From contig RFYG01000002.1 in the NCBI GenBank assembly GCA_009925685.1, forward strand, positions 1-41,789: a DNA stretch of 41,789 nt, written 5' to 3'. Position numbers and translations under genes: made by a program. The notes below the pieces were generated by a model that saw only the letters and a program-made list of their open reading frames with translations, was not told the DNA's origin and searched no databases. Below, in pieces: positions 2,261-40,165 of this stretch. The stretch comes from Pseudomonadota bacterium. GTDB lineage: Bacteria; Pseudomonadota; Alphaproteobacteria; Rickettsiales; UBA1997. The stretch's first letter is position 1. Each line of letters opens with the position of its first letter.

Positions 2261-3010
2261 CTAAAACTCTTGGTTGGCAAGCTCTAGGTTTTCTGGCGTT
2301 CCGATATGAAAATATTTTCCGCCCAATTCAACGCCATTAATTCGGTTTAAAATGAAATTTTTTCCAACGGAATTTTTATAAAACTGCGAAACCGAAAAAC
2401 ATTTTGGAAGCTGGTGTAATGCCTTTGTTGAAGCAATAATTTGCGGATTAAGAATTTGCATCCCAACATAAACAAAAGGCCTATTGATTTGCAAATTTTG
2501 CGATGAAAAATCTCGAACCAAAACTTCATTTTCGATTAAATCAAAATCCCCGCAACCATCATAACCCTTGAATTCCGGGGTTTTTTTCAATCCCAACAAA
2601 AAATCATGCTTGGTTGAATTAAATTTACTAAAAAGATACTCCATATCTGAAATTTCAGCTTTATCGCGCCACAAAACATCGCCGTTAAGCGTTAATAATG
2701 GTTGATTCACATCAATTTTATCAAGCGCAAAAAATAAACCACCGCCGGTTTCAATTTTTTCAGATTCATGCGAAACTATGATTCTTGGATCGTTCACCGA
2801 CTTGACGAAATCAATAATTTCGTCGGCAAGATAAAAAGCATTGATTAAAATTTTTTGCACCGATGAAATTTTTTGCACCTTATCCAAAATATGACCAAGA
2901 ATAGCCCTGTTTTGAACTTTAAGCAATGGCTTGGGGGTTGATTGAGTCAATGGCATCATTCTTTCGCCACGTCCCGCACAAAATATGAAAACTTGCGTGA
3001 TATTATTCAT
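2261..3010 (-). CDS. Sugar-1-phosphate nucleotidyltransferase family protein (MurU / mannose-1-P guanylyltransferase-like)
   Basis: The protein is 249 aa. The N-terminal motif AGRGERMxPLTxxxPKPLL is the NTP-transferase signature. The substrate cannot be told from the sequence alone. Confidence 0.7.
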   Translation of the reverse strand: MNNITQVFIFCAGRGERMMPLTQSTPKPLLKVQNRAILGHILDKVQKISSVQKILINAFYLADEIIDFVKSVNDPRIIVSHESEKIETGGGLFFALDKIDVNQPLLTLNGDVLWRDKAEISDMEYLFSKFNSTKHDFLLGLKKTPEFKGYDGCGDFDLIENEVLVRDFSSQNLQINRPFVYVGMQILNPQIIASTKALHQLPKCFSVSQFYKNSVGKNFILNRINGVELGGKYFHIGTPENLELANQEF

Positions 3011-3012
3011 AA

Positions 3013-4845
3013 CTATTTTTTAATTGAAAAAAGTTGTTGAGCGCTTGCGTTCTCAATTTGATAAGTCAAAACCCCGCCTGATTGAGCCGTCCATAGTCTT
3101 TTATAATAACCGTTTAGATCGAGCAATTCTTCGTGAGATCCATCTTCAACAATTTTACCTTTATCAAAAACCAAAATTCTGTCCATCATTTGAAGAGTTG
3201 ATAAGCGGTGCGCGATTACCAGAGTAGTTTTACTCTCCATCAAGTTCTTCAAACTTTGTTGAATCATGTTTTCAGTAACCGAGTCGAGCTGACTAGTGGC
3301 TTCATCCAAAACCAAGATTGGAGCATTTTTAAAGAATGCTCGAGCAATTGCAATTCTTTGTCGTTGACCTCCCGACAACTTAACGCCCCTCTCACCAACT
3401 TGCGAATAATAACCCTCGGGCATCATAGAAATAAATTTATGTGCCGAAGCTTTGACGGCCGAATCAACAACGCGAATCATTAGTTCTTCTTTGGATATTG
3501 GGCTTTTATTGCCATAAGAAATATTCTCAATTAAGTTGCGATGGAACAAAATAGCCTCTTGCGGAATTACGCCTATTTTATCGTGAAGCGAATCTTGAGA
3601 AACTTTAGCGATATCTTGACCATCAATCAAAATTTTACCCTCTTGGACATCATAAAAACGAAGTAATAAATTAATGAAAGTTGATTTACCGCTACCAGAA
3701 TGACCAACTAAGCCGACTTTTTGTCCGGCCTTGATGGTCAACGATTTATCGCTAAAAAGTGGACTATTTTGATGATATGAAAATTTGACGTTGTCATAAA
3801 TTATTTCACCTTTAGAAATTTGAATTTTTTGTTTGGAATCTTTAATTTCGGATGTTTTTGCGACCACGTCTAGAGCTTCTTTGACAACGCTAAATTCTTC
3901 TAAAAAATTACGAATTTGTTTCATAAAATCTTGAATGATGTTGTGCAAAAAATTATTGATGCCAAAAATTAAAATAAAATCGCCAACCGTCACTGCGCGC
4001 CTTGAGTATAGCCAAACCAACATCGCAAAACATAAAATAAAATAACTAGAAGAAATGAGGCTCAAAAAAGTATAATGTTTATTAAGGTAAAGACCGCGCT
4101 TTGAATAAAGTTCGCTAAATCTTTTTTGAAATTTATCAACTCGATTCAACTCCGTCTCGGCGCTAGAAAATAATTTTATGTTTTGAATATTGGCAAAAAT
4201 ATCAACAATATTGCCCATAATTCGACTTTGTTGATTAGCAACATTCATCGAAAGTCGATTGGTAAGGAGAGCAGAGCGGTAAGCAATTGGAATAATAATC
4301 ACAATCCAAATCAACAAAGCAAAAGCGAAGAAAAAATTTATGGTGCTTAAAGTTATAAAGGCGAACAAAACCGCCAAAGCGCCCCCAAAAAAATTGTATA
4401 AAAAAATTTCTATAATTTTTGGTGTGGAATTAAATAGGTCTCTGACCTTATTTACCAAAGATCCAGAGAAATTATTTTGAAAAAAAATATGCGATTGCGC
4501 TAAAAGTTTTTTGATTGAATCATGAGTAATTTGACGGCGCAATTTTGGCAAAAAAATCGCCCACACATAATCTGAAATTCTGACCAAAATGCTTGGCATC
4601 ACAATTAGAACCGCCAATAAAATCATGATATATTTTGTTGCAGAAAAAAGATTTTGTGGGTCTGAAATTATAATTTGATTGAGAAGAATCTTAGAAACCA
4701 AGGGCATCAAAGAAATATTGATGGCGCTAAATATGATAACCACAACATGCGCACAAAGCAGTAACTTAAAAGGCGAGACCGATTGCGCGAGAAATTTATA
4801 AATTTTTTTATTGTTAATCATTAAAAAGGTTTTTGATTGGGCCAT
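3013..4845 (-). CDS. ABC exporter, fused permease and ATPase (MsbA / multidrug-type half transporter)
   Basis: The protein is 610 aa with an N-terminal six-TM-like hydrophobic half. It has Walker A GHSGSGKST, the ABC signature LSGGQRQRIAIARA and Walker B ILVLDEATS. Confidence 0.85.
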   Translation of the reverse strand: MAQSKTFLMINNKKIYKFLAQSVSPFKLLLCAHVVVIIFSAINISLMPLVSKILLNQIIISDPQNLFSATKYIMILLAVLIVMPSILVRISDYVWAIFLPKLRRQITHDSIKKLLAQSHIFFQNNFSGSLVNKVRDLFNSTPKIIEIFLYNFFGGALAVLFAFITLSTINFFFAFALLIWIVIIIPIAYRSALLTNRLSMNVANQQSRIMGNIVDIFANIQNIKLFSSAETELNRVDKFQKRFSELYSKRGLYLNKHYTFLSLISSSYFILCFAMLVWLYSRRAVTVGDFILIFGINNFLHNIIQDFMKQIRNFLEEFSVVKEALDVVAKTSEIKDSKQKIQISKGEIIYDNVKFSYHQNSPLFSDKSLTIKAGQKVGLVGHSGSGKSTFINLLLRFYDVQEGKILIDGQDIAKVSQDSLHDKIGVIPQEAILFHRNLIENISYGNKSPISKEELMIRVVDSAVKASAHKFISMMPEGYYSQVGERGVKLSGGQRQRIAIARAFFKNAPILVLDEATSQLDSVTENMIQQSLKNLMESKTTLVIAHRLSTLQMMDRILVFDKGKIVEDGSHEELLDLNGYYKRLWTAQSGGVLTYQIENASAQQLFSIKK

Positions 4846-5940: not shown

Positions 5941-6705
5941 TTATGATTTTTTTGAATAACATTCGGCGGGATTAAAATTTTGCTTTTTGAGCTTGGAAAG
6001 GCGCTCATTAATGAAGTGACGCATAAAATTCATTTCTTCAACCGAAATTTGCCTTTTACCGCTCTCACTTTCATCGATAAGATTTTTTATAACCTTGAAA
6101 GCCATGCATGAATCACCTTTTTTTTCACCAATAAAAGCCGGCATTTGCCTAGTCCAAAGTGGCGCTTCTTTGGCATTATTTTGCGCTAATTTTTGTGCGA
6201 AATACAAAGATTTATCGAGGTCGTTCAGATCTTTTTTGGCAATAAAAGTCGCTTGAAAAAGCCACCACCAATTTTTATCAATATCGCGTGAAGAGTGCTC
6301 GTCAAGATATTGTAAAACATATTTTAAATCGCCTTTGTTTTGAGTTTGAGTATAATAGTAACTAGCTAATGAAGGAATTAATCGCGAATCTGCGTTTAGT
6401 TTGTCTAAAGTCGACATCCAATCATAAACTCGCGAATAATCATATTTATCCAAACTAACGAAACCCGCAAAAATATCGCCCGAATTTTGTAATCTGAGCG
6501 CTAAGGTTCTAAATATGAACTCATTATCCCCAAAAGATGAGGCTTTTATGAGATGATTTGAAGGGGCGGGGGGGACTATTTCGTCAACTAATCTATATTT
6601 TTCGGTTGATTTCCAAAAAAAAATCTGCGCAACAAAAACTGCAACAAACAACCAAAAAAAAATTTTATGTGAGTATATGTAAAAAAATAATTTGAAATTC
6701 TTCAC
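5941..6705 (-). CDS. Hypothetical membrane-anchored protein, last gene of the secretin operon
   Basis: The protein is 254 aa with a single N-terminal hydrophobic helix (IFFWLFVAVFVAQIFFW) followed by a soluble, probably helical domain. I recognise no family signature. Its start lies 14 nt downstream of the stop of the preceding gene. Confidence 0.6.
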   Translation of the reverse strand: MKNFKLFFYIYSHKIFFWLFVAVFVAQIFFWKSTEKYRLVDEIVPPAPSNHLIKASSFGDNEFIFRTLALRLQNSGDIFAGFVSLDKYDYSRVYDWMSTLDKLNADSRLIPSLASYYYTQTQNKGDLKYVLQYLDEHSSRDIDKNWWWLFQATFIAKKDLNDLDKSLYFAQKLAQNNAKEAPLWTRQMPAFIGEKKGDSCMAFKVIKNLIDESESGKRQISVEEMNFMRHFINERLSKLKKQNFNPAECYSKKS

Positions 6706-6719
6706 CGCGTAAACAAAAC

Positions 6720-7481
6720 CTAAAATTGCTTTTTCTTAAAATCATGAAATGCCATAAAAATCATTAATGGCAAATATATGGTGGATTGAAAAAAAATGAC
6801 CCACAAAACCATGTCGTCTTTTACGCCGTAGATTGGCCAAGAGCTCTGAGAAAAAAGGTCAAGCCTTGGAAAAATCACCGATAAAATTTTTAAAGCCATG
6901 CCCAACTCTCCATGTTTTACAGTGGTTAGTTCATCAGTAAAATCAATCGTCATAACAAACATGCCCATCAAACGAGAGATGGCGTAGAATCCAAAGGAGG
7001 CCAAAATTGCTGAGAAAGAATTTTTAAGTATCAACGAACTAAGAAGAGCAAAAGATATTACTATTAGATTTTCAGAAAGGGTGGTTAAAAACCAGTATAA
7101 GGCTCCGGTTTTGTCAACTTTGAAAACCAGCAAAACCGCTGAAATTATGGGCAACAAAATTAATAAATTTGCAATAAAGAAACCCAATAAATAGCCAAGA
7201 ATAAATTGTTCGCGTGAAATTGGTTTTGATAAAATAAATTCGATTTCTTTGTTATCAAAAGCGCGGGCAACATTGATGCAAACGAATAAAATCATACCTA
7301 ACGATAAAATTGTTCGCGAAGTGCCTAGGGTGTATGCTATTGATGATTGATTTTGCTCAACCATCATGGTCGAGCCCAGAAAAATCGATACTGCGAAGGC
7401 TAAAGCAATAAAAATTAGCAAGCCCAGATAGAGACGGTCTCTAAGACCGTTTTTGAGGATATACTTTAGAATGGGATTCAT
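6720..7481 (-). CDS. Polytopic inner-membrane protein, ABC-2 / NosY-like permease (tentative)
   Basis: The protein is 253 aa with about six hydrophobic segments. The stretch EIEFILSKPISREQFILGYLLG resembles the E-x-G-T-x-E-x-LLS-x-P-x-SR loop of ABC-2 permeases. No ATPase gene is adjacent. Confidence 0.55.
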   Translation of the reverse strand: MNPILKYILKNGLRDRLYLGLLIFIALAFAVSIFLGSTMMVEQNQSSIAYTLGTSRTILSLGMILFVCINVARAFDNKEIEFILSKPISREQFILGYLLGFFIANLLILLPIISAVLLVFKVDKTGALYWFLTTLSENLIVISFALLSSLILKNSFSAILASFGFYAISRLMGMFVMTIDFTDELTTVKHGELGMALKILSVIFPRLDLFSQSSWPIYGVKDDMVLWVIFFQSTIYLPLMIFMAFHDFKKKQF

Positions 7482-7483
7482 AG

Positions 7484-9091
7484 TTAAAAATAGTTTCGGC
7501 GATTGACATCATATTTTTCTTCAAGCTCGCGATCAACCTTATTAGCGCGCGTTCCGCTATTGATAATTGTGGCTTTAATAAAAATAACCGTTTCACTAAC
7601 TTCGAGTTTTTTGTACATCGCTTTAAATAACCAACCCAGAATTGGCACATTTCTTAAAAAAGGCACGCCAGCGCTTTCGCTATCGGATGTATTTGTCATC
7701 AAACCACCCAAAACAATTACATTTCCGGAGGCGACTTTAACTGCGGTGTTTAACTCTCTTGTATTTATAATCGGAACTTCATTTTGATACTTAAATTTAG
7801 AGTCATATCCAGTGGTTGGGTCTATAACGGAACCAGTATTGTTGGTAATTTTTGGCTGAATATTCATTGTAATTTCACCAGTTTTTAAATTAATCGAAGG
7901 CGTAATTTCAATTTGCGTACCAACATCTTCTTCTTGTTTAGTTGAGGTAACGGTTCCTAAAACAGTTGAAGCTGTTCCTCCGGTTGTTGACCCTTGGGCA
8001 CTTTGCTGAGCTTCCACCTTAAAATACACCAATTTGTTGGTAAAATTTAATGAGGCTTTTTGATTATTCATGGCATGCAATCTTGGGTTTTGAATAGTTT
8101 TGGTGACCCCAAACTTTGACATGGCATTGACGGCAACATTTATATCTCCCCCAAATATTTTAATATTTTGAAGAATTGGAGCTATTGTCCCAGTCGATGA
8201 AGATGATGCCGAAGAAGTGGATGTTGAAGAAGGGGAATTAGAAATATACGATTGGGAACCGTTTACACTGAAATTAATAAAGTCTTTTGACCAATCAATT
8301 CCGGCTCTAAATTCATCATTAAGTTTTACTTCAACAACCTTTGCTTCAATCAGAACTTGCGCTGAAGCTTGAGTGTTTACATCGGCGAGATATTTTTCAA
8401 TTGCACCATGTTGTCTTTGAGTGGCGTAAACAGTAAACATTCCAGCCGATTTATTAGAAGTAACGTTTGATTGAGAACTGCCTCCATCCGAAGGTTCGGA
8501 AGTAAAAATGTTTTCGATGTTAGTTTGAACCTCATCCCAAAGTGGAGAACCGTCGACATAATCAACAAAATAATTTTTCATGAAAGGCTTGTCGGTTTCA
8601 AAATATAAAACCTTGTTTTTGTAGGAATAGCGCAATTTTCCTTGAGTAGCAATCCTGTCAATAATTTCTTTGAATGGACGATTTTTGGCATTGATAATGA
8701 CCCCTCCAGAAATTTTTGGATCAACATCCACATCGATTTCGGCGATCCTTCCTAATTCGATCAAAACATCTCGCAAAGGAACTTGATCGGTTACATAAAA
8801 TGAGATTACTTTTTCACCGCCAATTTTTGGCGTCGGAACCGGAATAATTGATTTGTTAATTCGAGGTAACGGGGCTTCGGTTTTTTCAAGATCTTGTTTG
8901 TCTTTTTTATCTTTTTCCCTTGATCTAATTACTGTTTCTTTGATGTCTTTCTCGGTCATTCCAACTTCATCAAGGGTTGGATCGAGTCTTCCTTGAGAGC
9001 ATGAAAAAATTCCGACCAAAAATAGCATTGCGAAAAGCAATTTTATGCAATTAAAAAAATTGTTTTTGGGACTGTCTATTTGGGGACTCAC
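7484..9091 (-). CDS. Secretin family outer-membrane channel with a lipoprotein signal (MshL / PilN / BfpB-like)
   Basis: The protein is 535 aa. It has a signal peptide with the lipobox IFS-C (Cys31, codon 8999-9001). An N-domain (ISFYVTDQVPLRDVLIELGRIAEIDVDVDPKISGGVIINAKN) is followed by the secretin core (VLIEAKVVEVKLNDEFRAGIDWS) and the C-terminal hallmark GVPFLRNVPILGWLFK. Confidence 0.8.
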   Translation of the reverse strand: MSPQIDSPKNNFFNCIKLLFAMLFLVGIFSCSQGRLDPTLDEVGMTEKDIKETVIRSREKDKKDKQDLEKTEAPLPRINKSIIPVPTPKIGGEKVISFYVTDQVPLRDVLIELGRIAEIDVDVDPKISGGVIINAKNRPFKEIIDRIATQGKLRYSYKNKVLYFETDKPFMKNYFVDYVDGSPLWDEVQTNIENIFTSEPSDGGSSQSNVTSNKSAGMFTVYATQRQHGAIEKYLADVNTQASAQVLIEAKVVEVKLNDEFRAGIDWSKDFINFSVNGSQSYISNSPSSTSTSSASSSSTGTIAPILQNIKIFGGDINVAVNAMSKFGVTKTIQNPRLHAMNNQKASLNFTNKLVYFKVEAQQSAQGSTTGGTASTVLGTVTSTKQEEDVGTQIEITPSINLKTGEITMNIQPKITNNTGSVIDPTTGYDSKFKYQNEVPIINTRELNTAVKVASGNVIVLGGLMTNTSDSESAGVPFLRNVPILGWLFKAMYKKLEVSETVIFIKATIINSGTRANKVDRELEEKYDVNRRNYF

Positions 9092-12723: not shown

Positions 12724-14544
12724 TTAAGTTTTTTGGTTTTTTAAAATTTTATTAAGGCCTTGAGCCTCCATAAGAACATCTTTAGCGATAGGAGCCGCGG
12801 CCATCGAACCGCTTTTGCCATGCTCAACAACAACAGAAATTGCATATTTAGGCTCATGAACTGGAGCAAATCCAATAAAAATAGCGTGATTGGCATTATT
12901 CTCGCTTTCAAATTTTGACATTTCTTTTTCGCGCTTAGAAATAACCTGAGAAGTGCCGGTTTTGCCAGCCATTTCAAATCCTTGAGCATTAATTTTTTTC
13001 CCATAAGCCGTTCCGCCCGGCTCATTAACCACTCTTCTCATGCCTTCTTGTATTAATTTTAGAAATTTTCTATCGACAATTGGCTCATTTTTTAGAGCAT
13101 CAAATTGTTTAAAAATATTACTATTTCTAACCAAATAAGGCTTTATTGGCACACCGCCATTAGCAATTCTTGAAGCTACAACCGCCAATTGAAGAGGCGT
13201 TGACAAAACATTTCCTTGTCCAATCGCCGTATTAAGAGTGTCGCCTTTAACCCAAGGTTGATTAAAAACTTTTTGCTTCCACTCTTCAGACGGCACCATG
13301 CCAGCTTTGGCTCCGTAAAGACTTATATCGAATTTTTCACCAAATCCAAATCTTTTTGCCATTTCGGTGAATTTTTCGTGCCCGAATTGATTGGCAAGAG
13401 TATAAAAATAAGTATTACAAGAATGCATTATGGCTCCAACCAAATCTAGAGAACCGTGACCTTTTTCTTCCCAACAATGAAAAGTTCTTTTTCCGAGCTG
13501 ATATTTACCGTTACAATATACTCGGCTTGCAGGATTATAACCACTTTCAAGCGCCGACAAAGCAACCATGAGCTTAAAAGTTGAACCAGGGGGATAGAGC
13601 GCTGAGATAGGCTTGTTGTTAAGAGGCTTGCGAATATCTTCATTGAGTTGCTTCCAATAATCTCTCGAAACGCCCTCGACAAAATTATTGGGATCAAAAG
13701 TTGGCGATGAAGCATAACTCAAAATCTCGCCAGTTTTTACATCCATAACCACCACCGAAGACACCAAATCTCTTATTCTCTCGGTTACATATTTTTGAAG
13801 CGCGAAATCTATGGTTAAATTGATGCGCGAACCCTCCTGAGATTGTTTGATTGAGAGAGTTCTAAGAGGCACTTCGTGAACATTTACTTCGACATATTTG
13901 ACGCCATATTTGCCACGCAAAGCGGTGTCAAAAGTTTTTTCAATACCAAATTTGCCAATACGAAAATCGGGATGCATAAATAAATTTTGCTCATTTTCTT
14001 CAATTTCTTTTTCAGCGGGCAATGAAACATAACCCAAAAAATGGGCGGTCTCAGTTGGGTAAGGATATTTTCTGATTATACCGCTCTCAATTGAAACCCC
14101 CGGCAACTTGTGAAAATTCGTTTCGATGCGAGCTAAATCATCCCATCCGAGATTATCAATTAAAGAGATTACGCTTTTGCGTTTGGCATTTTTGAGCTTC
14201 GCAAAAAATAAATTTTTTGTTTCTTGATTGACTCCGATTATTTCGCAAATTTGCTCGATTGCTTTGTTAGCGTTGGTTTTTCGATCAAGGTAAAGCAATA
14301 ATCTAAAATTACTTTCGTTTCTGGTCAGGGGGAGGCCATATCGATCAAAAACGGTCCCGCGACCAGCCGGATTTATAACGGGCTTGATTCGATTACTATC
14401 GGATTGACTTTTATAATCATCATGTCGCCATATTTGCAAATATCCCAAGCGAAAAACCAAAATTCCCGAAAGAGCAGTTTGGCCAATCCCTAAAATCATG
14501 GCCCTTCTATTAAAAACCTTATTTTTTCTAATATCACGGAGCAT
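12724..14544 (-). CDS. mrdA: Penicillin-binding protein 2 (elongasome transpeptidase)
   Basis: The protein is 606 aa with an N-terminal anchor and a PBP dimerisation domain. The transpeptidase motifs are STFK (PGSTFKLM), SCN (HSCN) and KTGT (AGKTGTSQ). It lies directly after mreD. Confidence 0.9.
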   Translation of the reverse strand: MLRDIRKNKVFNRRAMILGIGQTALSGILVFRLGYLQIWRHDDYKSQSDSNRIKPVINPAGRGTVFDRYGLPLTRNESNFRLLLYLDRKTNANKAIEQICEIIGVNQETKNLFFAKLKNAKRKSVISLIDNLGWDDLARIETNFHKLPGVSIESGIIRKYPYPTETAHFLGYVSLPAEKEIEENEQNLFMHPDFRIGKFGIEKTFDTALRGKYGVKYVEVNVHEVPLRTLSIKQSQEGSRINLTIDFALQKYVTERIRDLVSSVVVMDVKTGEILSYASSPTFDPNNFVEGVSRDYWKQLNEDIRKPLNNKPISALYPPGSTFKLMVALSALESGYNPASRVYCNGKYQLGKRTFHCWEEKGHGSLDLVGAIMHSCNTYFYTLANQFGHEKFTEMAKRFGFGEKFDISLYGAKAGMVPSEEWKQKVFNQPWVKGDTLNTAIGQGNVLSTPLQLAVVASRIANGGVPIKPYLVRNSNIFKQFDALKNEPIVDRKFLKLIQEGMRRVVNEPGGTAYGKKINAQGFEMAGKTGTSQVISKREKEMSKFESENNANHAIFIGFAPVHEPKYAISVVVEHGKSGSMAAAPIAKDVLMEAQGLNKILKNQKT

Positions 14545-14545
14545 T

Positions 14546-15043
14546 TTATTGTCCTAATAATTTGCGATTTAAATAATCAAAAAGACTGTGGGCTGGGATA
14601 TATAAAACCGAAGATATAATTAGTTGAACAATAAGATTCCAAACCGAACCCGATTGGCCGTTAATTATGAGCAATAAAAACCACTTTCCGAATAAAAACA
14701 TGATCGAAAAATATATGAATTGTTGCCAAATTTGTCGGAATCTTTCTTTGTTTAAAAGCCTAACATTTAGGATCGCAAAAAACTTGATTAATACAATATA
14801 ACATAGCGATGTTAGACCAAGGGGGTTGCCATTTAAAGCATCATTCCATATTCCTAGCAAAAAGATAAAAAACAGTCCGAAGATATTTTTAAAAACTGCA
14901 AAATAAAACACCGCCATCAAATCCATCATAGGCATAACATCATTGAAGCCAGAAATATTTATATTGGTAAGATTCATAATAGTAAGAACAACCGCAAATA
15001 AGTACAGCAAGAGTGATTTAGCTAGAGATCTTTGCTCGAACAT
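14546..15043 (-). CDS. mreD: Rod shape-determining protein MreD
   Basis: The protein is 165 aa with about five TM segments. It has a conserved-looking WNDALNGNPLGLTSLCY segment. Its position one nucleotide upstream of mrdA matches the canonical mreD-mrdA order. Confidence 0.65.
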   Translation of the reverse strand: MFEQRSLAKSLLLYLFAVVLTIMNLTNINISGFNDVMPMMDLMAVFYFAVFKNIFGLFFIFLLGIWNDALNGNPLGLTSLCYIVLIKFFAILNVRLLNKERFRQIWQQFIYFSIMFLFGKWFLLLIINGQSGSVWNLIVQLIISSVLYIPAHSLFDYLNRKLLGQ

Positions 15044-15109
15044 AACTGAAAACAGCTTTGATTGGGGGAATTGATTATTTGGTGATTATGAAAAATTCAT
15101 TTTATTATT

Positions 15110-16141
15110 CTAGACAAATAATTGGCTAAAATTTCTTCTTTTTCTTTTTTTCCATAGACCTTCGTGATAAGCGCAAGAGGCTAACAAAGGTATAACGGAA
15201 GTCGCTTCGGCGTAAACCATTTGCTCATATGCGGTGTCAACTTTTCCCCATGAACAAGCTTCTTTAAGAGTTGAAGATGAGCAAGCTCCGTCTCTCTGGT
15301 CGGCAACTGTAATTTGAATTGCATATTTGTGCATATCAACTTCTTTGCCAAGAATTTCAGCGCATACAACGGTATCTTGAACAAAGTTTTTAGGAACTCC
15401 ACCTCCAACCATCAAAAGGCCGGTTGTGCCAGCTTTGATTTTTATATCGGTGAGCTCTCTAAAATCTCTAATTGAGTCAATTGTTAAATGCGATTTTGGA
15501 TTTTTAACCTGATGAAGAACCAAGCCAAATCCAGCCGAAGAGTCGGTAAAAGCTGGGCAAAAAATTGGCACGTTATTTTCGTATGCCAGTTGAATTAGTG
15601 ATTCTTTTTTCTTGGATTTTTTTGTCAAATATTTGCCCATTTCTGCGATAAATTCTCTTGAGGAATATGGCTTGGGTTTGAGAGAATTAGCAATTTCAAA
15701 AATTGTGTGATCGCATTTTTGCAAATCTGCTTCGTCGATATAAGTATCATAAATTCTATCGATATAATTATCGCGCAAAAATTTGTCGTCGATAAAGGGA
15801 GTGCCTTGATAATGCTTAAAACCTAAGGCCTCAAAAAAATCCATATCAACTATCGATGCACCAGTCGCAACAATTGCATCGATCATATTGTATTTAATCA
15901 TGTCAGCATAAAGCTTCATGCAACCGCCAGCCGAGGTTGATCCAGCGAGAGTTAAAATTATTGAACAAGACTTATCAGCCAACATCATGTTAAAAATTTC
16001 AGTTGCGCGCGCCAAATCTCTTGACGTAAAAGACATATCATCCATTTGCTTAACGATTGGTCGAGCATCAAAAGAGGTTATGTCGATGTGTTTGACTTGT
16101 CTCTTAAGTAAATCTTTTTTAGAAATTTTTTTTGCAGTCAT
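15110..16141 (-). CDS. Deoxyhypusine synthase-like protein (candidate homospermidine synthase)
   Basis: The protein is 343 aa when started at the internal ATG 16139-16141 (MTAKKISKK...), which lies 4 nt after the ODC stop. DHS family blocks present are LAGSTSAGG, ATGASIVDMDFFEALG and MVGGGVPKNF, the last containing the lysine. Confidence 0.8.
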   Translation of the reverse strand: MTAKKISKKDLLKRQVKHIDITSFDARPIVKQMDDMSFTSRDLARATEIFNMMLADKSCSIILTLAGSTSAGGCMKLYADMIKYNMIDAIVATGASIVDMDFFEALGFKHYQGTPFIDDKFLRDNYIDRIYDTYIDEADLQKCDHTIFEIANSLKPKPYSSREFIAEMGKYLTKKSKKKESLIQLAYENNVPIFCPAFTDSSAGFGLVLHQVKNPKSHLTIDSIRDFRELTDIKIKAGTTGLLMVGGGVPKNFVQDTVVCAEILGKEVDMHKYAIQITVADQRDGACSSSTLKEACSWGKVDTAYEQMVYAEATSVIPLLASCAYHEGLWKKRKRRNFSQLFV

Positions 16142-16145
16142 TGTC

Positions 16146-17495
16146 TTATTTAGTTTGAGATTTATTAAGGTTTTGCTGATTTTTATGCAGATTATACATT
16201 GATTCAATTGGCTCGTCGGATACTTCAATTTGTAGATTTTGATTAAATCCATTGAACTCTGTTCTAATGCTTCTTGAATAAGCTCCAAGCTGGGCAATTT
16301 CGATATAATCACCAGCGCCAATATCATCCGGTAGATAAAATGGACCCTTCATGGTATCAAGAGAATCGCATGTTGGCCCATAAAAACCAAAAGCAATTTT
16401 ATTAGAAGATAATGATGAGCCTTTTTTAGCCCTAATGGCTTTTGTATGATAAATAAATCCCGGATATCCAGCATCAAAAAGTCCGCCATAGGTGCCATCA
16501 TTGATGTAAAGCATATGATTTTTTCGACCTTCAACCCTAACAACCAAAGAGCCGGATTCGGCCACCAAAGCTCTGCCGGGTTCACACCAAATTCTTGCAC
16601 CCTTGGCCAGATTTAGTTGGTTTATGGATTCAAAAATTTCATCAAAATAGCTCTGAAGATTAGGCGGTGTCATGGTTGGATAGGTCGAAGGAAAACCGCC
16701 CCCAACATCAAGAACATCAAGCTTAACGCCAGCATTATCAATCACTTCTTTTGCGATCATTATGGCATTACGATATTCAACCGGATCCATGCATTGAGAT
16801 CCAACATGAAAACATACGCCAAGCCTTGAGGAATGAGCGCGAGTTTTTCTGAGCAGGGATGAAGATTCTGAAGGTAGAATTCCAAACTTACCCGACAAGT
16901 CAATGGCCGAGTGCGAGTTGGGGATTGAGAGTCGAATGTGAAGACCTAAATCTTTAGCATTTTGGGTAATAAGTAAAATTTTTTCTAACTCATCAAAACT
17001 ATCGAGGGAAAAATCTTTTATGCCATAATTAAAATATGCTTCCTTAATAGCTTCAGGAGCTTTGATTGGGTGCATAAAATACATTTTTACTTTGTCACCG
17101 AAAAGTTCATTAATAAGCTTGATTTCCGACAAAGACGCTACATCGAAATGCTTAATACCGAAATCAAAAAGATACTTCAAAACCGATTTATCGGGATTGC
17201 TTTTTACGGAATACAAAATGTCTGTTGGATATTTATTGCATCTAAAATTTTTAGCAAAAAAACCTACCGCCTTTTTGAGAATTTTTGGCCTAATACAATA
17301 TACAGGGATAGAGGGTAAGTTTTGCTTAATAAATTCTTCAACAAGAACAAGACCTTTTTTCGCCTCATCTTCTTCGGAAAAATTGTTTAAATTTGTTTTA
17401 TTTTTAACTGACAAATCAAGATTTTTTTTATCTGTTTTGTGTAAATAATAAACATTTGAAGAAGATCTTCGGACGTACTCTTGTTCTGGCTCCAT
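16146..17495 (-). CDS. Ornithine decarboxylase, PLP-dependent, alanine-racemase fold (group IV Orn/Lys/Arg decarboxylase)
   Basis: The protein is 449 aa. It has the PLP-lysine block YSVKSNPD, then FHVGSQC, the Gly loop DVGGGFP, EPGRALV and GPTCDSLD. This layout resembles eukaryotic-type ODC. The first 50 aa or so form a low-complexity extension. Confidence 0.85.
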   Translation of the reverse strand: MEPEQEYVRRSSSNVYYLHKTDKKNLDLSVKNKTNLNNFSEEDEAKKGLVLVEEFIKQNLPSIPVYCIRPKILKKAVGFFAKNFRCNKYPTDILYSVKSNPDKSVLKYLFDFGIKHFDVASLSEIKLINELFGDKVKMYFMHPIKAPEAIKEAYFNYGIKDFSLDSFDELEKILLITQNAKDLGLHIRLSIPNSHSAIDLSGKFGILPSESSSLLRKTRAHSSRLGVCFHVGSQCMDPVEYRNAIMIAKEVIDNAGVKLDVLDVGGGFPSTYPTMTPPNLQSYFDEIFESINQLNLAKGARIWCEPGRALVAESGSLVVRVEGRKNHMLYINDGTYGGLFDAGYPGFIYHTKAIRAKKGSSLSSNKIAFGFYGPTCDSLDTMKGPFYLPDDIGAGDYIEIAQLGAYSRSIRTEFNGFNQNLQIEVSDEPIESMYNLHKNQQNLNKSQTK

Positions 17496-18543: not shown

Positions 18544-19674
<1,131 letters not shown>

Positions 19675-19741
19675 ATTTTTTATTTGCATTTTAGTTTTTT
19701 TAATAAATTGTCAAAATCCCCAAAATAAAATTTCATCAATT

Positions 19742-20092
19742 ATGAAAACACGCGCCAATTTTTTATTAACAATCTTTGTTGCTCTTATTTTTACAAATAT
19801 TGCCACCGAAGCTTTCGCTCAAACCCCCGAGAAAGGCTCTTCAAACAGCCTAAACGCTCCACAACAAAACCAAAATATCGACATCAAAAAAGCCAATAAT
19901 CAAAAAAAACAACAAAGATATAATCAAGCTAGTCCAGAGCAAAAACAAAAAATTGATAAACGCAGAGAGATCATGAAAAACCTTACTCCTGAGCAAAGAA
20001 ATCTTGTTAAGCAAGAAAGAGAAAGGCATCGTCAAGAAATGAAAAAAATTATTGGGGTTGATCTTCTTAGCGATCAACTTCCCATCGAATAA
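19742..20092 (+). CDS. Small secreted basic protein with SPEQ/TPEQ (LTxxQ-like) repeats
   Basis: The protein is 116 aa from the ATG at 19742. The longer track ORF overlaps tgt. The signal peptide is MKTRANFLLTIFVALIFTNIATEAFA|Q. The motifs SPEQKQKI and LTPEQRNLV sit in a Lys/Arg/Gln-rich helix. Confidence 0.65.
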   Translation: MKTRANFLLTIFVALIFTNIATEAFAQTPEKGSSNSLNAPQQNQNIDIKKANNQKKQQRYNQASPEQKQKIDKRREIMKNLTPEQRNLVKQERERHRQEMKKIIGVDLLSDQLPIE

Positions 20093-20137: not shown

Positions 20138-20791
20138 ATGAAAAAAATTATTATTTTTTTAGCGCTTATCATGTCCACTGAATCTATAGCGCAGAACTCA
20201 CCCCCTAGAGCTTCAAATGCTCCAAAAAGCCAACCTCAAAATTCTCCAACCACCACTGCAAATATTTCAAAACAAACGCCACCGGCCCCCGAATCATCAT
20301 CAAATACAAACCCACCTTCTAAGGAGATTCAGAAAAGAATGGACGAAAGCAAAGATCTTGATCTATCTATTAAAAATCTAAGCCCCGAAAAAAGACAAAA
20401 ATTCAATAAAATTAATACCGATTTTATCGAAAAATTGACTAAGGTAAATAGCAAATTTGAGGCCAGTATTTCAAAAATCTCAAATATCAAAAATATTATG
20501 ATGATTAATGGTTATTTATTCCCCAATAAAAACAATCAAAATAGAGAGATGCCGAAAGAATTTCAGCAAACTTATAATAGTATGATAACTCAGTATAACA
20601 AACTCTCAAAAGAAAAAAGGAAAGCTACCAAGCAAGAAATTATTAAGTTCCGCAAAGAAATCATGGCTATTCAAAAAGAGCGCCGTAAACAGATCAAAGA
20701 TTTGTTTGGCAAAGATTATAGCATAATGTCAGAATCTGAAAGTGAAGAGCAAATCAAAAAAGATGAAGATTTACTGAAAAAAGAAAAGTAA
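20138..20791 (+). CDS. Secreted basic coiled-coil protein, paralog-like to the preceding gene
   Basis: The protein is 217 aa. The signal peptide is MKKIIIFLALIMSTESIA|Q, followed by a Pro/Ser/Asn-rich linker. It has LSPEKRQKF and LSKEKRKATKQEIIKFRKEIMAIQKERRKQIKDLFG. The second segment aligns by eye with the C-terminus of the upstream protein. Confidence 0.7.
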   Translation: MKKIIIFLALIMSTESIAQNSPPRASNAPKSQPQNSPTTTANISKQTPPAPESSSNTNPPSKEIQKRMDESKDLDLSIKNLSPEKRQKFNKINTDFIEKLTKVNSKFEASISKISNIKNIMMINGYLFPNKNNQNREMPKEFQQTYNSMITQYNKLSKEKRKATKQEIIKFRKEIMAIQKERRKQIKDLFGKDYSIMSESESEEQIKKDEDLLKKEK

Positions 20792-24227: not shown

Positions 24228-24575
24228 CTATTTTCTTTCACCTGTTGTAGAAGACGGAACTTGTACTGCAGATGGAGGAGTTACAGAGGCGTCTTTAGAA
24301 ACTTCGGCTTTAGCTTTTTTAGATTTTTTAGTTTCAACTTTTGGAGTTTCAACTGAACCAGCAACTGGAGCGGTTCCAGAAACATCTTTAGAAACTTCAG
24401 CTTTAGCTTTTTCGGCTTTAGCTTTTTTAGGTTTTTTAGTTTCAACTTTTGGAGTTTCAACTGAACCAGCAACTGGGGCTTGAACATTAGAAGCCGAGGT
24501 TGAAGCTGGGGTTTGAGCATTGGCAGAAGAAGCAAATAAAGCAACAACTGCAAGGATTAGTGAAATTTTTTTCAT
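24228..24575 (-). CDS. Secreted Lys/Ala/Pro-rich repeat protein
   Basis: The protein is 115 aa. The signal peptide is MKKISLILAVVALFASSANA|Q. The block APVAGSVETPKVETKK(P/S)KKAKAE...VSKD occurs twice. The gene has its own strong terminator. Confidence 0.7.
   Translation of the reverse strand: MKKISLILAVVALFASSANAQTPASTSASNVQAPVAGSVETPKVETKKPKKAKAEKAKAEVSKDVSGTAPVAGSVETPKVETKKSKKAKAEVSKDASVTPPSAVQVPSSTTGERK
24307..24476. repeat. Intragenic tandem duplication with a 108-nt period
   Basis: The segments 24307-24368 and 24415-24476 are identical at 61 of 62 positions, differing by one A/G. The 108-nt offset equals 36 codons, so the reading frame is preserved. Confidence 0.85.
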
Positions 24576-28840: not shown

Positions 28841-29455
28841 TTAAAGAGTCAATATCAACTTATCGCGATAAAATTCATATTTATAGAATCGCTTTAAAAA
28901 ACTCATTCCAAGCAATGGCACCGAAAGCTCAGAACTCGTAACCGATGCCGAAACGTTGTAAAACTTAACGCCTGCCACATCTATTTCATTAAAATATGTA
29001 GAGGCTCCCGAAACCTCTCCGTTGGCGGTTCGAAATATTTTGTCATAATATAAATTTTCGATATTTATGCCTAATTTTGAAGCGAGTTTTTTGTCAATAA
29101 CTAAATCACTTGCGCCCGTATCAATCATAAATTTTATGGACTGATTATTGATTTTAATAGTTAAGTAATAGTGATTATCTTGAGATACAGAAATAACTAA
29201 TTGTTCGTTATTTTTGTTGATTGGTTTAGAAGGAAAAAGGTCGGAAGAAATGCGCTCCTTGGTGTCGCTAATTTCAAATCTAAAACTATAAAATGCCAAC
29301 AAAGCCAAGCCAATCCCAGACCAAATTGCGATATATTTGATAATTTTTTGAGTGGGCATTTGTCGATTTAAAAAACCCATCAACAAAACAATTATTAGGA
29401 TTAAAAGATATATTACGTTGCTTATTTCATGTGATGAAGGCGCGCTATAATCCAT
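28841..29455 (-). CDS. Membrane-anchored retropepsin-like (clan AA) aspartic protease
   Basis: The protein is 204 aa with two N-terminal TM helices. The soluble domain carries the single catalytic triad D-T-G (IDTGASDLV, codons 29114-29122). This matches the TIGR02281 / Rickettsia APRc-type architecture. Confidence 0.75.
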   Translation of the reverse strand: MDYSAPSSHEISNVIYLLILIIVLLMGFLNRQMPTQKIIKYIAIWSGIGLALLAFYSFRFEISDTKERISSDLFPSKPINKNNEQLVISVSQDNHYYLTIKINNQSIKFMIDTGASDLVIDKKLASKLGINIENLYYDKIFRTANGEVSGASTYFNEIDVAGVKFYNVSASVTSSELSVPLLGMSFLKRFYKYEFYRDKLILTL

Positions 29456-36655: not shown

Positions 36656-37288
36656 ATGAAAATCGTTATTATTGACTACGGGGCGGGCAATGTTAAATCG
36701 GTTTTTAATGCACTAAAAAAAATCGACAATCTTTGCGATGTTATTATATCAAGTGATCTAGCCGACATAAAATCGGCGAATTATTTTATACTGCCTGGCG
36801 TAGGGGCGTTTGGTGATTGCATGAATTCTCTGAAATCGGTTGAGGGTCTTTTGAGCGAGCTTCGTAACCAAGTCCTAAATTACAAAAAACCATTTTTGGG
36901 AATATGTGTTGGAATGCAGGTTTTGGCTTCAATTGGGCTAGAAAACGGCGAACATCATGGTTTAGGTCTCATTAATGGGAGGGTTGAAAAAATTCCCGCC
37001 GAAAATGGCTTAAAAATTCCGCAAATGGGTTGGAACTCCCTCAAAATAAAATCCGTCAACCACCCGATTGTTTTGGAAATAGCTCAAGACGAAGATTTTT
37101 ATTTTGCCAACTCCTATCATTTTATTTGTCAAAACGAAAATAATGTTATTGGTTACGTTGATTACGGCATAAAAATTAACGCGATAATCGCCAAAGACAA
37201 CATAATCGGGGCGCAATTTCATCCCGAAAAAAGTGGAAAAGCCGGACTCAAATTCTTGAAAAATTTTATTGATTGGCGCCCTCGATAG
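36656..37288 (+). CDS. hisH: Imidazole glycerol phosphate synthase, glutamine amidotransferase subunit
   Basis: The protein is 210 aa. It has IIDYGAGNVKSV, LPGVGAFG, the nucleophile elbow GICVGMQ, and the C-terminal FHPEKSG. Confidence 0.88.
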   Translation: MKIVIIDYGAGNVKSVFNALKKIDNLCDVIISSDLADIKSANYFILPGVGAFGDCMNSLKSVEGLLSELRNQVLNYKKPFLGICVGMQVLASIGLENGEHHGLGLINGRVEKIPAENGLKIPQMGWNSLKIKSVNHPIVLEIAQDEDFYFANSYHFICQNENNVIGYVDYGIKINAIIAKDNIIGAQFHPEKSGKAGLKFLKNFIDWRPR

Positions 37289-38385
37289 AGTCAATTCGCT
37301 TGCTTTTAAAAGTCATCAATATTGCATTTGTGAAAATTTCTGAACTTATCAATCAACAATTATTTTCTGAAAATTCTGGTTATTACAAAACCAAAAATCC
37401 AATCGGTAAATCTGCCGACTTCATAACGGCGCCTGAAATTTCGCAAATTTTTGGTGAAGTGGTGGCAAGTTATTTATTAGAAATCTCTAAATCGACAACT
37501 TCAAAAATTTCTTTAGTAGAAATGGGCGCGGGCAGGGGCATATGGTTTAGAGATATATTAAAAACAATAAATTTTTTAGCCCAAAAAAAAATATCCATCG
37601 CACAAAAATTTATCGAAAAAAGCACTTTTCATATCATCGAAATTAATCCTCATTTAAAAGCGATTCAGCAACAAAATTTAGGTGATTATAAGGTTTTTTG
37701 GCATGATAATTTTGAAAATTTCAAAAGCGCTTCAGAACTTGATTTGGGCGGTGAAATATATTTTTTATCGAATGAGCTTTTAGATTGTTTTGCGATTGAT
37801 CAATTTGTTAAAACCAAAGATGGTTGGCAAGAAAGATTGATCAATTTTAGTGATAAGCAAAACTTATCAGAACCGCAATTTGTAATAAGAAATACTGATA
37901 AATTAATTCACACTTTTGTTGAATCTCAGCTCGGAAAAGATTTGTCGGAATCTGCCCCATTTGGAGCCATTTATGAATATTCAAAATCAGCGCAAACCTT
38001 TATTTCTAAGCTTTTTGAAGCAATTAATCATCGTGGCGGTCTCGCTATAAATATTGATTACGGATATTTTTCTTATGATTTTGCCAACACATTACAAACG
38101 GTGCGCAATCATCAAAAAATTCCTTTCTTTGAAGGATTAAAAAATGCTGATATTACGGCGCTGGTTGATTTTGTTGCTGTCGATAAAATCGCCAAAGCGC
38201 ACAACCTTAATTCATCTCTAATTAGTCAAAATCAGTTCTTGTTAGAGCTTGGAGCCAAGGAGCGCCTTGAAAATCTCGCGCAATTAAATCCCGCCAAAAA
38301 TGATGAATTACGAAGCGCTTTTCATAGACTTGTTGATCCCGAGCAAATGGGCGATTTGTTCAAAGTTCATATTGCTTGGAGATAG
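37273..38385 (+). CDS. SAM-dependent methyltransferase, MidA / NDUFAF7 (DUF185) family
   Basis: The protein is 370 aa. It has GYY....DFITAPEISQIFGE and VEMGAGRG. The only in-frame start upstream of these motifs is the TTG at 37273, which overlaps the end of hisH by 16 nt. The exact start is uncertain. Confidence 0.78.
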   Translation: MAPSIESIRLLLKVINIAFVKISELINQQLFSENSGYYKTKNPIGKSADFITAPEISQIFGEVVASYLLEISKSTTSKISLVEMGAGRGIWFRDILKTINFLAQKKISIAQKFIEKSTFHIIEINPHLKAIQQQNLGDYKVFWHDNFENFKSASELDLGGEIYFLSNELLDCFAIDQFVKTKDGWQERLINFSDKQNLSEPQFVIRNTDKLIHTFVESQLGKDLSESAPFGAIYEYSKSAQTFISKLFEAINHRGGLAINIDYGYFSYDFANTLQTVRNHQKIPFFEGLKNADITALVDFVAVDKIAKAHNLNSSLISQNQFLLELGAKERLENLAQLNPAKNDELRSAFHRLVDPEQMGDLFKVHIAWR

Positions 38386-38470
38386 CTTGGGCCGATTTAA
38401 TGTTTGATTTCTATTCGTCGAAAATTAAAATTATCGCACAAATATCAAATTCCATGATAAATTCTCATCT

Positions 38471-39499
38471 ATGATAAATTCTTCGGCGCAATATTCTAAA
38501 AATGTTCCAAAATTCAGCAATTCAGAAGAGCATAATTCAGAGGGGCGCGACAATTACCATCCTCGAGACAATTGGCAGGTTGCACAAGTTCTTGAATATT
38601 TTAATATGCCCTTTAATGACTTGATATTCAAGGCGTCGCAAATTCATCGCCAATTTCATAATCCCAACGAAGTTCAAATTAGTACGCTTTTGAGTATTAA
38701 AACTGGGGGCTGTCCAGAAAATTGCAAATATTGTCCGCAATCTGCTCACTACGATACCGGACTCGAAAAACAGGGTTTGATGCCAACCAAAAAAATTGTT
38801 GAAAGCGCTAAAAATGCTCAAAAAGCAGGGGCAACTCGATTTTGTATGGGCGCGGCATGGCGCAGTCTTCACGATCGCGATGTTGAAAAAATTTGTGAAA
38901 TTGTCGAGGCGGTCAAGGCTACTGGCATGGAAACTTGCATGACACTTGGAATGCTTAGTCAAAAACAAAGTCAAAAACTTAAAGAAGCGGGCTTAGATTA
39001 TTATAATCACAATATTGATTCATCTGAAGAATTTTATTCAGAAATAATTTCTACACGAAATTTTGAAGATCGTTTAAATACATTAAAGAACGTGCGCGAA
39101 TCTGGAATGAGCGTTTGTTCGGGAGGGATTGTCGGAATGGGAGAGTCGCGTGAAGATCGCGCTAAAATGCTTATCGTTTTAGCTAATTTACCAAAGCAAC
39201 CCGAGTCGGTGCCAATTAATATGCTGGTTCGTGTCAAAGGTACGCCACTTGAAAATATTGCGCCACTCGATCAATTTGAATTTATTCGCACCATCGCTAT
39301 TGCCAGAATTATGATGCCTAAATCAAAAGTTAGGCTTTCGGCTGGGCGCGAGGAAATGAACGAGCAAACTCAAGCTTTGTGTTTTTTTGCGGGAGCCAAT
39401 TCAATTTTTTATGGCGAAAAGTTGCTCACAACCGGCAATCCTGATTGCAAAAGAGATCAAGAATTATTTAGTAAACTCGGCATTGTTGCGCAAAATTAA
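38471..39499 (+). CDS. bioB: Biotin synthase (radical SAM)
   Basis: The protein is 342 aa. It has [19 protein letters not shown], the CxxxCxxC cluster motif, plus downstream blocks matching E. coli BioB. About 28 extra N-terminal residues precede the conserved W. Confidence 0.92.
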
Positions 39500-39577
39500 G
39501 GCTCGCTTATGGCTACTTAGGTGGTTGCAAGGCTTGAATCTCTCAACTTTTTATTAACAATTAAAAAATTTAAATTT

Positions 39578-40042
39578 ATGTCAAATTACGAAAAAAAACT
39601 TACCGATATGGGCATTGTTTTGCCAACTCCTGCTTCGCCCGTTGCCAATTATGTTGGCTTTGTGAAATCCGGTAACATGATTTTTGTGTCGGGTCAGTTG
39701 CCAATTGAGGGTGGCAAGTTGCAAGGAATTGGTAAAGTTGGAAGTCAAATTTCGGTTGACGAAGCTAAAAAATGCGCAAGGTTATGCACCATCAATATTT
39801 TGGCGCAACTCAAAGTGGCCTGCGATGGTAATCTCGATCATGTTAAAAAATGCGTTAAGCTTGGTATTTTTGTCAACGCTGATCCTGACTTTAAAGACCA
39901 TCCCGCTGTTGCCAACGGTGCTTCGGATTTAATTGCCGAAACTTTTGGTGAGTCTGGCAAGCATGCTCGCGCTGCCGTCGGATCTGGCTCTCTGCCTTTT
40001 GGCGTTGCGGTTGAGGTTGATGCAATTTTTGAAATCCTTTAG
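39578..40042 (+). CDS. RidA / YjgF family protein
   Basis: The protein is 154 aa from the ATG at 39578 (MSNYEKKL...). It has YVGFVKSGNMIFVSGQLP and a C-terminal ARAAVGSGSLPFGVAVEVDAIFEI, typical of the Rid family. Confidence 0.85.
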   Translation: MSNYEKKLTDMGIVLPTPASPVANYVGFVKSGNMIFVSGQLPIEGGKLQGIGKVGSQISVDEAKKCARLCTINILAQLKVACDGNLDHVKKCVKLGIFVNADPDFKDHPAVANGASDLIAETFGESGKHARAAVGSGSLPFGVAVEVDAIFEIL

Positions 40043-40165
40043 AGATTCTTAAAAATAAATAGTGATTTGATATTTTTTTTGTTATTTTTTTTTGAGATAA
40101 CAAATCGTTCGAATTCGGTTGTCGATTGTTAAAATTTCATCAATATTTTCATTCAAACGCTTCGC

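Follow-up and report, generated by a model that had tools for sequence, protein, structure and literature searches.

The described systems closest to the locus analysed here include type IV pilus machines. In the mannose-sensitive haemagglutinin (MSHA) operon the secretin gene mshL is followed by mshM, which encodes an ExeA-like ATPase, and then by mshN, which encodes a tetratricopeptide repeat (TPR) protein (PMC4624765). In Myxococcus xanthus PilGHI, an ATP-binding cassette (ABC) transporter homologue, is required for type IV pili (PMC3724824, PMC5544727), and the machine also has pilMNOPQ (PMC5544727, PMC6060248). Published surveys of Rickettsiales describe components of type IV pili from basal lineages and from the DDG clade (PMC10847448, PMC9352585). 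The locus described here consists of three minus-strand genes on contig RFYG01000002.1 of a Rickettsiales-like genome (the window, which is the entire 41.8-kb contig), predicted to encode an MshL-like lipoprotein secretin, a NosY-like ABC-2 permease and a membrane-anchored protein designated P3. It is considered probable (roughly 70%) that this trio supplies a type IVa/MSHA-like pilus machine with its outer-membrane and envelope cassette, the remaining genes of the machine being dispersed in the genome. The genes, and the regions recognised within them, are as follows (dN/dS, ratio of nonsynonymous to synonymous substitution rates):

7484-9091, minus strand: MshL-like secretin, a predicted lipoprotein of 535 amino acids, GTG start (Pfam Secretin, NCBIfam and PDB matches; dN/dS 0.065)
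8999-9091, minus strand: predicted signal peptide of the secretin, ending in the lipobox IFS-C31 (direct reading of the sequence)
8603-8815, minus strand: putative N0-like periplasmic domain of the secretin, approximately residues 93-163 (block ISFYVTDQVPLRDVLIELGRIA...LRYSY...VLYFE in all homologues)
7562-8122, minus strand: beta-barrel and gate domain of the secretin, residues 324-510 (PF00263 profile positions 2-168 of 169)
6720-7481, minus strand: NosY-like ABC-2 (type V) permease, 253 amino acids with six predicted transmembrane (TM) helices (Foldseek; dN/dS 0.034)
5941-6705, minus strand: P3, a membrane-anchored protein with a predicted all-alpha repeat domain, 254 amino acids, GTG start (AlphaFold; dN/dS 0.025)
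6607-6663, minus strand: predicted TM anchor of P3, approximately residues 15-33 (hydropathy, and an AlphaFold helix at residues 2-34)

The three open reading frames (ORFs) are tightly packed, with spacers of 2 nt between secretin and permease and 14 nt between permease and P3, in agreement with the operon-like arrangement claimed in an earlier note on this DNA. The dN/dS values were obtained against a 97%-identical locus (L004) and reveal strong purifying selection on all three genes, comparable to that on nuoF (0.024), which bears out a further claim of that note, that the retained secretin has a function under selection. Promoter and terminator scans around the operon gave nothing exceeding shuffled expectation.

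Conservation of the trio and its place in pilus clusters

When each GTDB species was represented by a single genome, 45 P3 loci were identified, all of them in metagenome-assembled genomes (MAGs) labelled Rickettsiales, Alphaproteobacteria or Micavibrio and mostly derived from lakes. Secretin, permease and P3 were found to be adjacent and co-oriented in 35 of the 45, while the arrangement was cut by a contig end in two, a pilin-like gene replaced the secretin in one and P3 stood alone beside nadC in seven. The trio is a conserved unit, as its co-linearity was kept down to a P3 identity of 29-36%, where the surrounding genes had all changed.

At the nine distant loci in this range of identity the trio lies within a long same-strand cluster of type IV pilus genes. 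PilT-family ATPases are encoded directly upstream of the secretin at every distant locus with an upstream flank (7/7), and pilin-like genes lie just downstream at every one with a downstream flank (8/8). The gene orders observed were:

L046 (1.3-Mb contig): TPR, PilD, PilT, PilU, secretin, permease, P3, seven pilin-like paralogues, PilB, PilC
L042, L043, L044, L047 and L048: three uncharacterised single-TM proteins, ABC ATPase, TPR, PilD, PilT, PilU, secretin, permease, P3, AraC, pilin-like
L041, from P3 onwards: pilin, PilB, PilC, uncharacterised proteins, ABC ATPase (the same as in L042, L043, L044, L047 and L048)

The PilT/PilU-family ATPases of L046 scored 462 and 416 bits against a TIGR01420 cut-off of 319, its PilB-type ATPase carries an MshE-type cyclic di-GMP (c-di-GMP) motif, and its secretin scored 237.8 against MshL, just short of the 250.2 cut-off. 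The block of ABC, TPR, PilD, PilT and PilU genes was also seen in two metagenome contigs (L073 and L075), and in L068 (GC 0.28) and L070 the secretin directly follows PilD, the L068 secretin being 42% identical to that of the window. No PilMNOP family was detected in the pilus clusters with Pfam and NCBIfam, nor were the GspC, GspL and GspM families found in Pfam/NCBIfam scans of the cluster reading frames.

Further genes of these clusters were noted. A block encoding uncharacterised proteins of 157, ~303, ~212 and ~195 amino acids precedes the cluster ABC ATPase (L047:45-2162; L041:9418-11016; L046:20220-20690); a single TM segment or a signal peptide is present in three of these proteins and a coiled coil in one, and no match was found in Pfam or the PDB. 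It might be speculated that these proteins are analogues or equivalents of PilMNOP. Pilin-like genes of the relatives are located at L022:6930-9121, L049:10001-10996, L052:10001-10993, L054:10001-10918 and L046:10776-16980 (the seven tandem paralogues).

Loci of the close clade (P3 identity 50-97%) share the flanks of the window: ispDF and nuoF lie divergent upstream, and downstream come nadC and the genes for an MsbA-like exporter and an NTP-transferase. The synteny of the window around the trio recurs on the 369-kb contig Ga0502761_0000011 (DUF374, ispDF, nuoF, secretin, permease, P3, nadC, MsbA-like exporter, NTP-transferase, with hemE, clpX, clpP and grpE nearby). At a distance of 20-40 kb from the trio, this contig carries isolated genes for the prepilin peptidase PilD and for a pilin-like protein whose leader reads MKNKYSA/FSLIELSIV. 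In assembly CAYUHG01 a trio like that of the window lies on contig 14 (L026), and a pilin-like gene stands by itself on contig 2 (L054). In L022, L049, L050 and L051 the order is NhaA, pilin-like, permease, P3 and nadC, the pilin gene standing at the position of the secretin.

Single rvh-type type IV secretion system (T4SS) genes encoding TrbC, VirB4 and VirB3 were also observed scattered among the housekeeping genes of relatives, paralleling the pilus genes (L053:7976-8332 and 13546-16044; L055:18414-18710; L056:19083-19325), and gene scattering is therefore the norm in these genomes. The trio most probably looks like an orphan because the lineage disperses its pilus genes one by one among housekeeping genes. 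The earlier note had read it as an orphan and proposed a minimal or novel export or uptake module; this was not upheld, since the trio of the distant relatives lies inside pilus clusters and, in close relatives, a trio like that of the window shares its contig or assembly with PilD or pilin genes. The gene-neighbourhood search across genomes, in which the trio recurs in company with pilus genes, largely identifies it as a displaced component. The supplements of PMC10847448 hold nothing on UBA1997, UBA2645 or pilQ, and a search of the literature on Deianiraea and Micavibrio pili found nothing useful.

The three proteins and the remainder of the window

The secretin was matched by the Pfam Secretin family (PF00263) with an E-value of 1.8e-35 (122.5 bits against a cut-off of 27.5), and the core and C-terminal motifs from which the earlier note had called it a genuine secretin were located. 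The best NCBIfam model was MshL (TIGR02519; 190.8 bits, under the cut-off of 250.2), followed by GspD (TIGR02517; 136.6 against 351.35) and PilQ (TIGR02515; 111.9 against 284.35), and the protein is best described as MshL-like rather than as a certified MshL. Sequence matches in the PDB were to GspD (the best), PilQ and the pIV export protein of phage f1. No AMIN domain was found, the Secretin family being the only Pfam match at E-values up to 1. The lipobox Cys31, also noted earlier, occupies a column that is invariant in all 16 aligned homologues (in the contexts FSC, AGC, VGC, TSC and ASC), and this conservation predicts a lipoprotein secretin of the self-piloting type. The N0 label of the conserved block is putative; the phmmer alignment with M. 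xanthus PilQ begins at residue 104 of the query (chain residue 489). Two Ser/Thr tracts regarded as unusual in the earlier note are indeed present, at residues 285-302 (8186-8239, 3 nt from the 8189-8242 given there) and 366-384 (7940-7996), but they are not unusual for this subfamily: both fall in length-variable linkers in which distant homologues carry far longer low-complexity inserts of 100-150 residues, and they were therefore rejected as a special feature.

The permease gave only sub-threshold Pfam matches, to ABC2_membrane_3 and ABC2_membrane_2 (18.7 bits against 31.6), and a profile search of the PDB returned PmtD at an E-value of 0.05. Its AlphaFold model (predicted local distance difference test score, pLDDT, of 75) was compared with known structures using Foldseek, and NosY was the best match over the full length (TM-score 0.65-0.71, E 1e-4, probability 1.00), followed by PmtD, ABCG transporters (ABCG25) and Wzm. 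On the basis of this full-length superposition the second gene is identified as encoding an ABC-2 (type V) permease with the six-TM fold, as had been proposed from the sequence, and homologues are annotated by the Joint Genome Institute (JGI) as NosY-type (COG1277).

No cognate ABC ATPase was detected in the window by Pfam scans or tblastn, again as claimed before. In the relatives L041-L044, L047, L048 and L075 an ABC ATPase of the DrrA class is encoded within the pilus cluster. DrrA-, GldA- and RbbA-class ATPases pair with ABC-2 permeases, and it is these three models that scored above LptB for the cluster ATPase; LptB was rejected as its identity (98 bits against a cut-off of 240). According to TM analysis the relatives' pilus clusters encode no multi-TM protein other than the permease. 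The proteins u303, u212 and u195 encoded beside the ATPase were rejected as its permease, each having a single TM segment. The DrrA-class ATPase is thus a plausible partner of the permease.

P3 had no match in Pfam or NCBIfam (TPR models included), and a PDB profile search was empty, in line with the earlier inability to place the 254-amino-acid protein in any family. Its AlphaFold model (pLDDT 85) consists of a single TM helix at the N terminus and, beyond it, an all-alpha repeat domain, for which Foldseek returned only generic TPR folds from the PDB (TM-scores 0.3-0.4, E above 5e-3). The repeat domain is predicted to be periplasmic because the flanks of the TM helix obey the positive-inside rule (net charge +2.0 before and +0.15 after) and two cysteines, C200 and C249, are invariant. 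P3 was also considered as a TPR pilotin or accessory protein (PilF/PilW/Tgl, MshN), for which no recognisable TPR repeats were found; it has a TM helix and no lipobox.

The remainder of the window was screened for partners of the trio, none of which the earlier note had seen. Of the 35 other large ORFs, 30 were scanned with Pfam and yielded housekeeping families or no match, and no pilus or type II secretion system (T2SS) family, the five ORFs at 37273-41754 being assessed as translations only. No prepilin motif was present in any of the six frames, and tblastn with the pilus proteins of the relatives recovered only the trio itself and, within the MsbA-like exporter, the nucleotide-binding domain. 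The earlier observation was thereby confirmed.

Several neighbouring genes were recorded. The fused MsbA-like ABC exporter (610 amino acids) and the NTP-transferase (249 amino acids) lie after nadC at 2261-4845 on the minus strand, with a 2-nt spacer; they are on the same strand as the trio, hold the same position in most close relatives (L001-L020 and L057), and could be co-transcribed with it. A 204-amino-acid retropepsin-like aspartyl protease is encoded at 28841-29455 on the minus strand (Pfam gag-asp_proteas, 7e-25), and we take it to resemble the APRc type of Rickettsia, which would fit the Rickettsiales affiliation. Small signal-peptide ORFs of low complexity, rich in K, E, Q and P and without a Pfam family, are found at 19604-20092 and 20138-20791 (plus strand) and at 24228-24575 (minus strand), the last with an internally duplicated segment (...APVAGSVETPKVETKK.KKAKAE...). 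A deoxyhypusine-synthase-like ORF and an ornithine/diaminopimelate-decarboxylase ORF (15110-16327 and 16146-17495, minus strand) overlap by 182 nt as annotated, the start of the downstream gene probably being mis-set; together they suggest a polyamine pathway, for example homospermidine synthesis.

Interpretation and alternatives

In the proposed type IV pilus machine, with the trio as its envelope cassette, the lipoprotein secretin would multimerise into a gated outer-membrane channel for the fibre and, being a predicted lipoprotein, would probably pilot itself to the membrane. The permease would form the membrane half of an ABC-2 transporter whose ATPase is encoded elsewhere in the genome (of the DrrA class in the relatives' cluster). 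P3 would be held by its inner-membrane anchor, and its helical-repeat domain in the periplasm would most likely link the permease to the N0 domain of the secretin or to pilins. This ABC-driven accessory unit may help in the assembly or gating of the secretin, or in the handling of pilins. We infer the roles of the permease and P3, the ATPase partnership and a physical complex of the three proteins, the roles from the ABC-2 fold, the ATPase in the relatives' pilus cluster and the predicted periplasmic repeat domain of P3. It is possible, though doubtful, that the type IV pili of Alphaproteobacteria have an undescribed envelope module driven by ATP and made up of the NosY-like permease, the DrrA-class ATPase and P3, in place of the alignment complex PilMNOP or of the factors ExeAB/MshMN for secretin assembly. 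In such a module the ABC transporter would act as a mechanotransducer on P3, and P3 would be docked on the N0 ring of the secretin.

A number of observations weigh against the assignment to a pilus machine. As the window is the whole contig, the search of its own genome for pilus genes was limited to that contig. Among close-clade contigs, which were examined by pilin-context look-ups and a PilD scan of metagenomes, PilD and pilin-like genes alone were recovered, and no PilB, PilC or PilT. The family placement of two of the proteins is loose: the secretin scores higher with MshL than with GspD, PilQ, SctC or HofQ, every one of these scores being under its equivalog cut-off, and the TPR-like label of P3 is applied loosely, from weak Foldseek matches. 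At seven close-clade loci P3 adjoins nadC with no secretin or permease nearby (L029, L030, L032 and L034, in the order ribH, P3, nadC; L035 and L039, in the order guaB, P3, nadC; and L025). P3 lies directly upstream of nadC across the close clade whether or not secretin and permease are present; it may have a role independent of the secretin, and the lone copies may represent leftover synteny or such a second role. The pilin-like proteins of the clade are, moreover, unusually large (245-339 amino acids) with Ala rather than Gly at position -1 (MKNKSSA/FSLIELSIV), and many carry a lectin-like Laminin_G_3 domain. These large proteins may be adhesin-pilins.

Three other explanations were considered. 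The trio might be a self-contained, pilus-independent export or uptake module, in which the permease, with an unlinked ATPase, moves a substrate across the inner membrane, P3 bridges the periplasm and the secretin serves as the exit in the outer membrane. The trio does form an autonomous tight unit among housekeeping genes in the window and its close relatives, with no pilus gene found in the window and PilB, PilC and PilT not seen so far in the close clade, and the permease shares its fold with the true exporters NosY, PmtD and Wzm. This explanation is nevertheless very improbable, given that the trio stands in type IV pilus clusters wherever clustering has been preserved, that PilD and pilin genes share a contig or assembly with window-like trios, and that one sub-lineage has a pilin gene adjoining those of permease and P3; to our knowledge, all known secretins serve filament-type or injectisome-type machines. 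A further suggestion is that permease and P3 belong to an unrelated membrane system merely lying beside the secretin, for example a lipid or metal-cofactor transporter of the ABC-2 type. The seven loci with P3 beside nadC but without secretin and permease speak for such a system, as do the structural relatives of the permease, which handle copper delivery, peptides or glycans. Against it, the order secretin-permease-P3 is kept to ~30% identity over 35 loci while all neighbours change, the spacers measure only 2 and 14 nt, the permease-P3 pair follows a pilin gene where the secretin is missing, and the sole ABC ATPase candidate of the relatives lies inside the pilus cluster; there is thus little likelihood that the association is fortuitous.

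A T2SS with a pseudopilus, the trio comprising its GspD and accessory proteins, is unlikely. GspD is the second NCBIfam match of the secretin and its best sequence match in the PDB, some pilin-like proteins are labelled PulG by JGI, that of L047 weakly matches GspG and GspH, and Castelli et al. treat type IV pili and T2SS together for Rickettsiales (PMC10847448). The clusters of the relatives, however, encode two retraction ATPases, PilT and PilU, above the family cut-off and gave no GspC, GspL or GspM family in the Pfam and NCBIfam scans; the best match of the secretin is MshL, the extension ATPase has the MshE-type c-di-GMP motif, and the multiple pilin paralogues of 245-339 amino acids, some with lectin-like domains, do not correspond to a GspG-K set.

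Where a secretin looks orphaned in a Rickettsiales-like genome that is fragmented, it should be read as a piece of a dispersed type IV pilus system and not as evidence of a novel secretion route. Secretins of type IV pili are already known; what is new is the pairing of an MshL-like lipoprotein secretin with two conserved and undescribed partners, the ABC-2 permease and P3, neither of which matches a described pilus component. The association spans freshwater Rickettsiales-like MAGs to Micavibrio-like predators, and the P3 family (219 close matches) comprises 401 clusters at 50% identity. The pili of these lineages may mediate attachment to hosts or prey, as Castelli et al. suggest such a role for Rickettsiales type IV pili (PMC10847448). 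The role of PilGHI in piliation is unsettled in the M. xanthus studies (PMC3724824, PMC5544727), and the trio offers a second, independent case for its study.

Comparison with known systems

Like PilQ with PilF in type IVa pili and GspD with GspAB (ExeAB) in T2SS, the window combines a secretin bearing an N0-like domain with accessory envelope proteins. In those systems the helper in secretin assembly is a TPR pilotin or an ATPase-driven assembly factor, and PilQ has AMIN domains. The window secretin differs in having no AMIN domains and in scoring far under the PilQ and GspD cut-offs, and P3 differs from PilF-type pilotins in standing on an inner-membrane helix and not being an outer-membrane lipoprotein.

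The likeness to NosDFY, a transporter whose membrane and ATPase components power a partner in the periplasm, is that NosY is the best full-length structural match of the permease. The identity between permease and NosY is only 16-17%, however, the Pfam ABC-2 scores are below gathering thresholds, and no NosD, NosF, NosL or NosZ was found in the window or the loci examined.

M. xanthus PilGHI provides a functional parallel: genes for an ABC ATPase and an ABC-2-type permease of ~250 amino acids lie within the type IV pilus cluster, and piliation requires both proteins (PMC3724824, PMC5544727). In the pilus clusters of the relatives, too, an ABC ATPase, here of the DrrA class, accompanies the permease, the likeness to PilI and PilG being by literature description only. 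In the window the permease gene is joined to the secretin gene and not to pilA, and the clusters of the relatives differ from Myxococcus in that no PilMNOP family was detected in them.

The V. cholerae MSHA system (mshL-mshM-mshN-mshE-mshG) differs from the locus in several respects: the second gene of the trio encodes an ABC-2 permease where MSHA has an ExeA-like AAA ATPase, P3 could be related by sequence to no family and so to no named TPR family such as that of MshN, the window secretin is under the MshL equivalog cut-off, and no mshI/J/K-like genes were recognised with the trio. The likenesses are that MshL is the best family of the window secretin, itself predicted to be of the lipoprotein type, and MshL is presumably also a lipoprotein secretin. 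The extension ATPase of the relatives has the MshE c-di-GMP motif, and PilT is used for retraction. In both loci, finally, the gene after that of the secretin encodes an ATPase-linked inner-membrane component and the next one a helical-repeat protein, an order by which the trio recalls, as a positional parallel, MshL-MshM-MshN.

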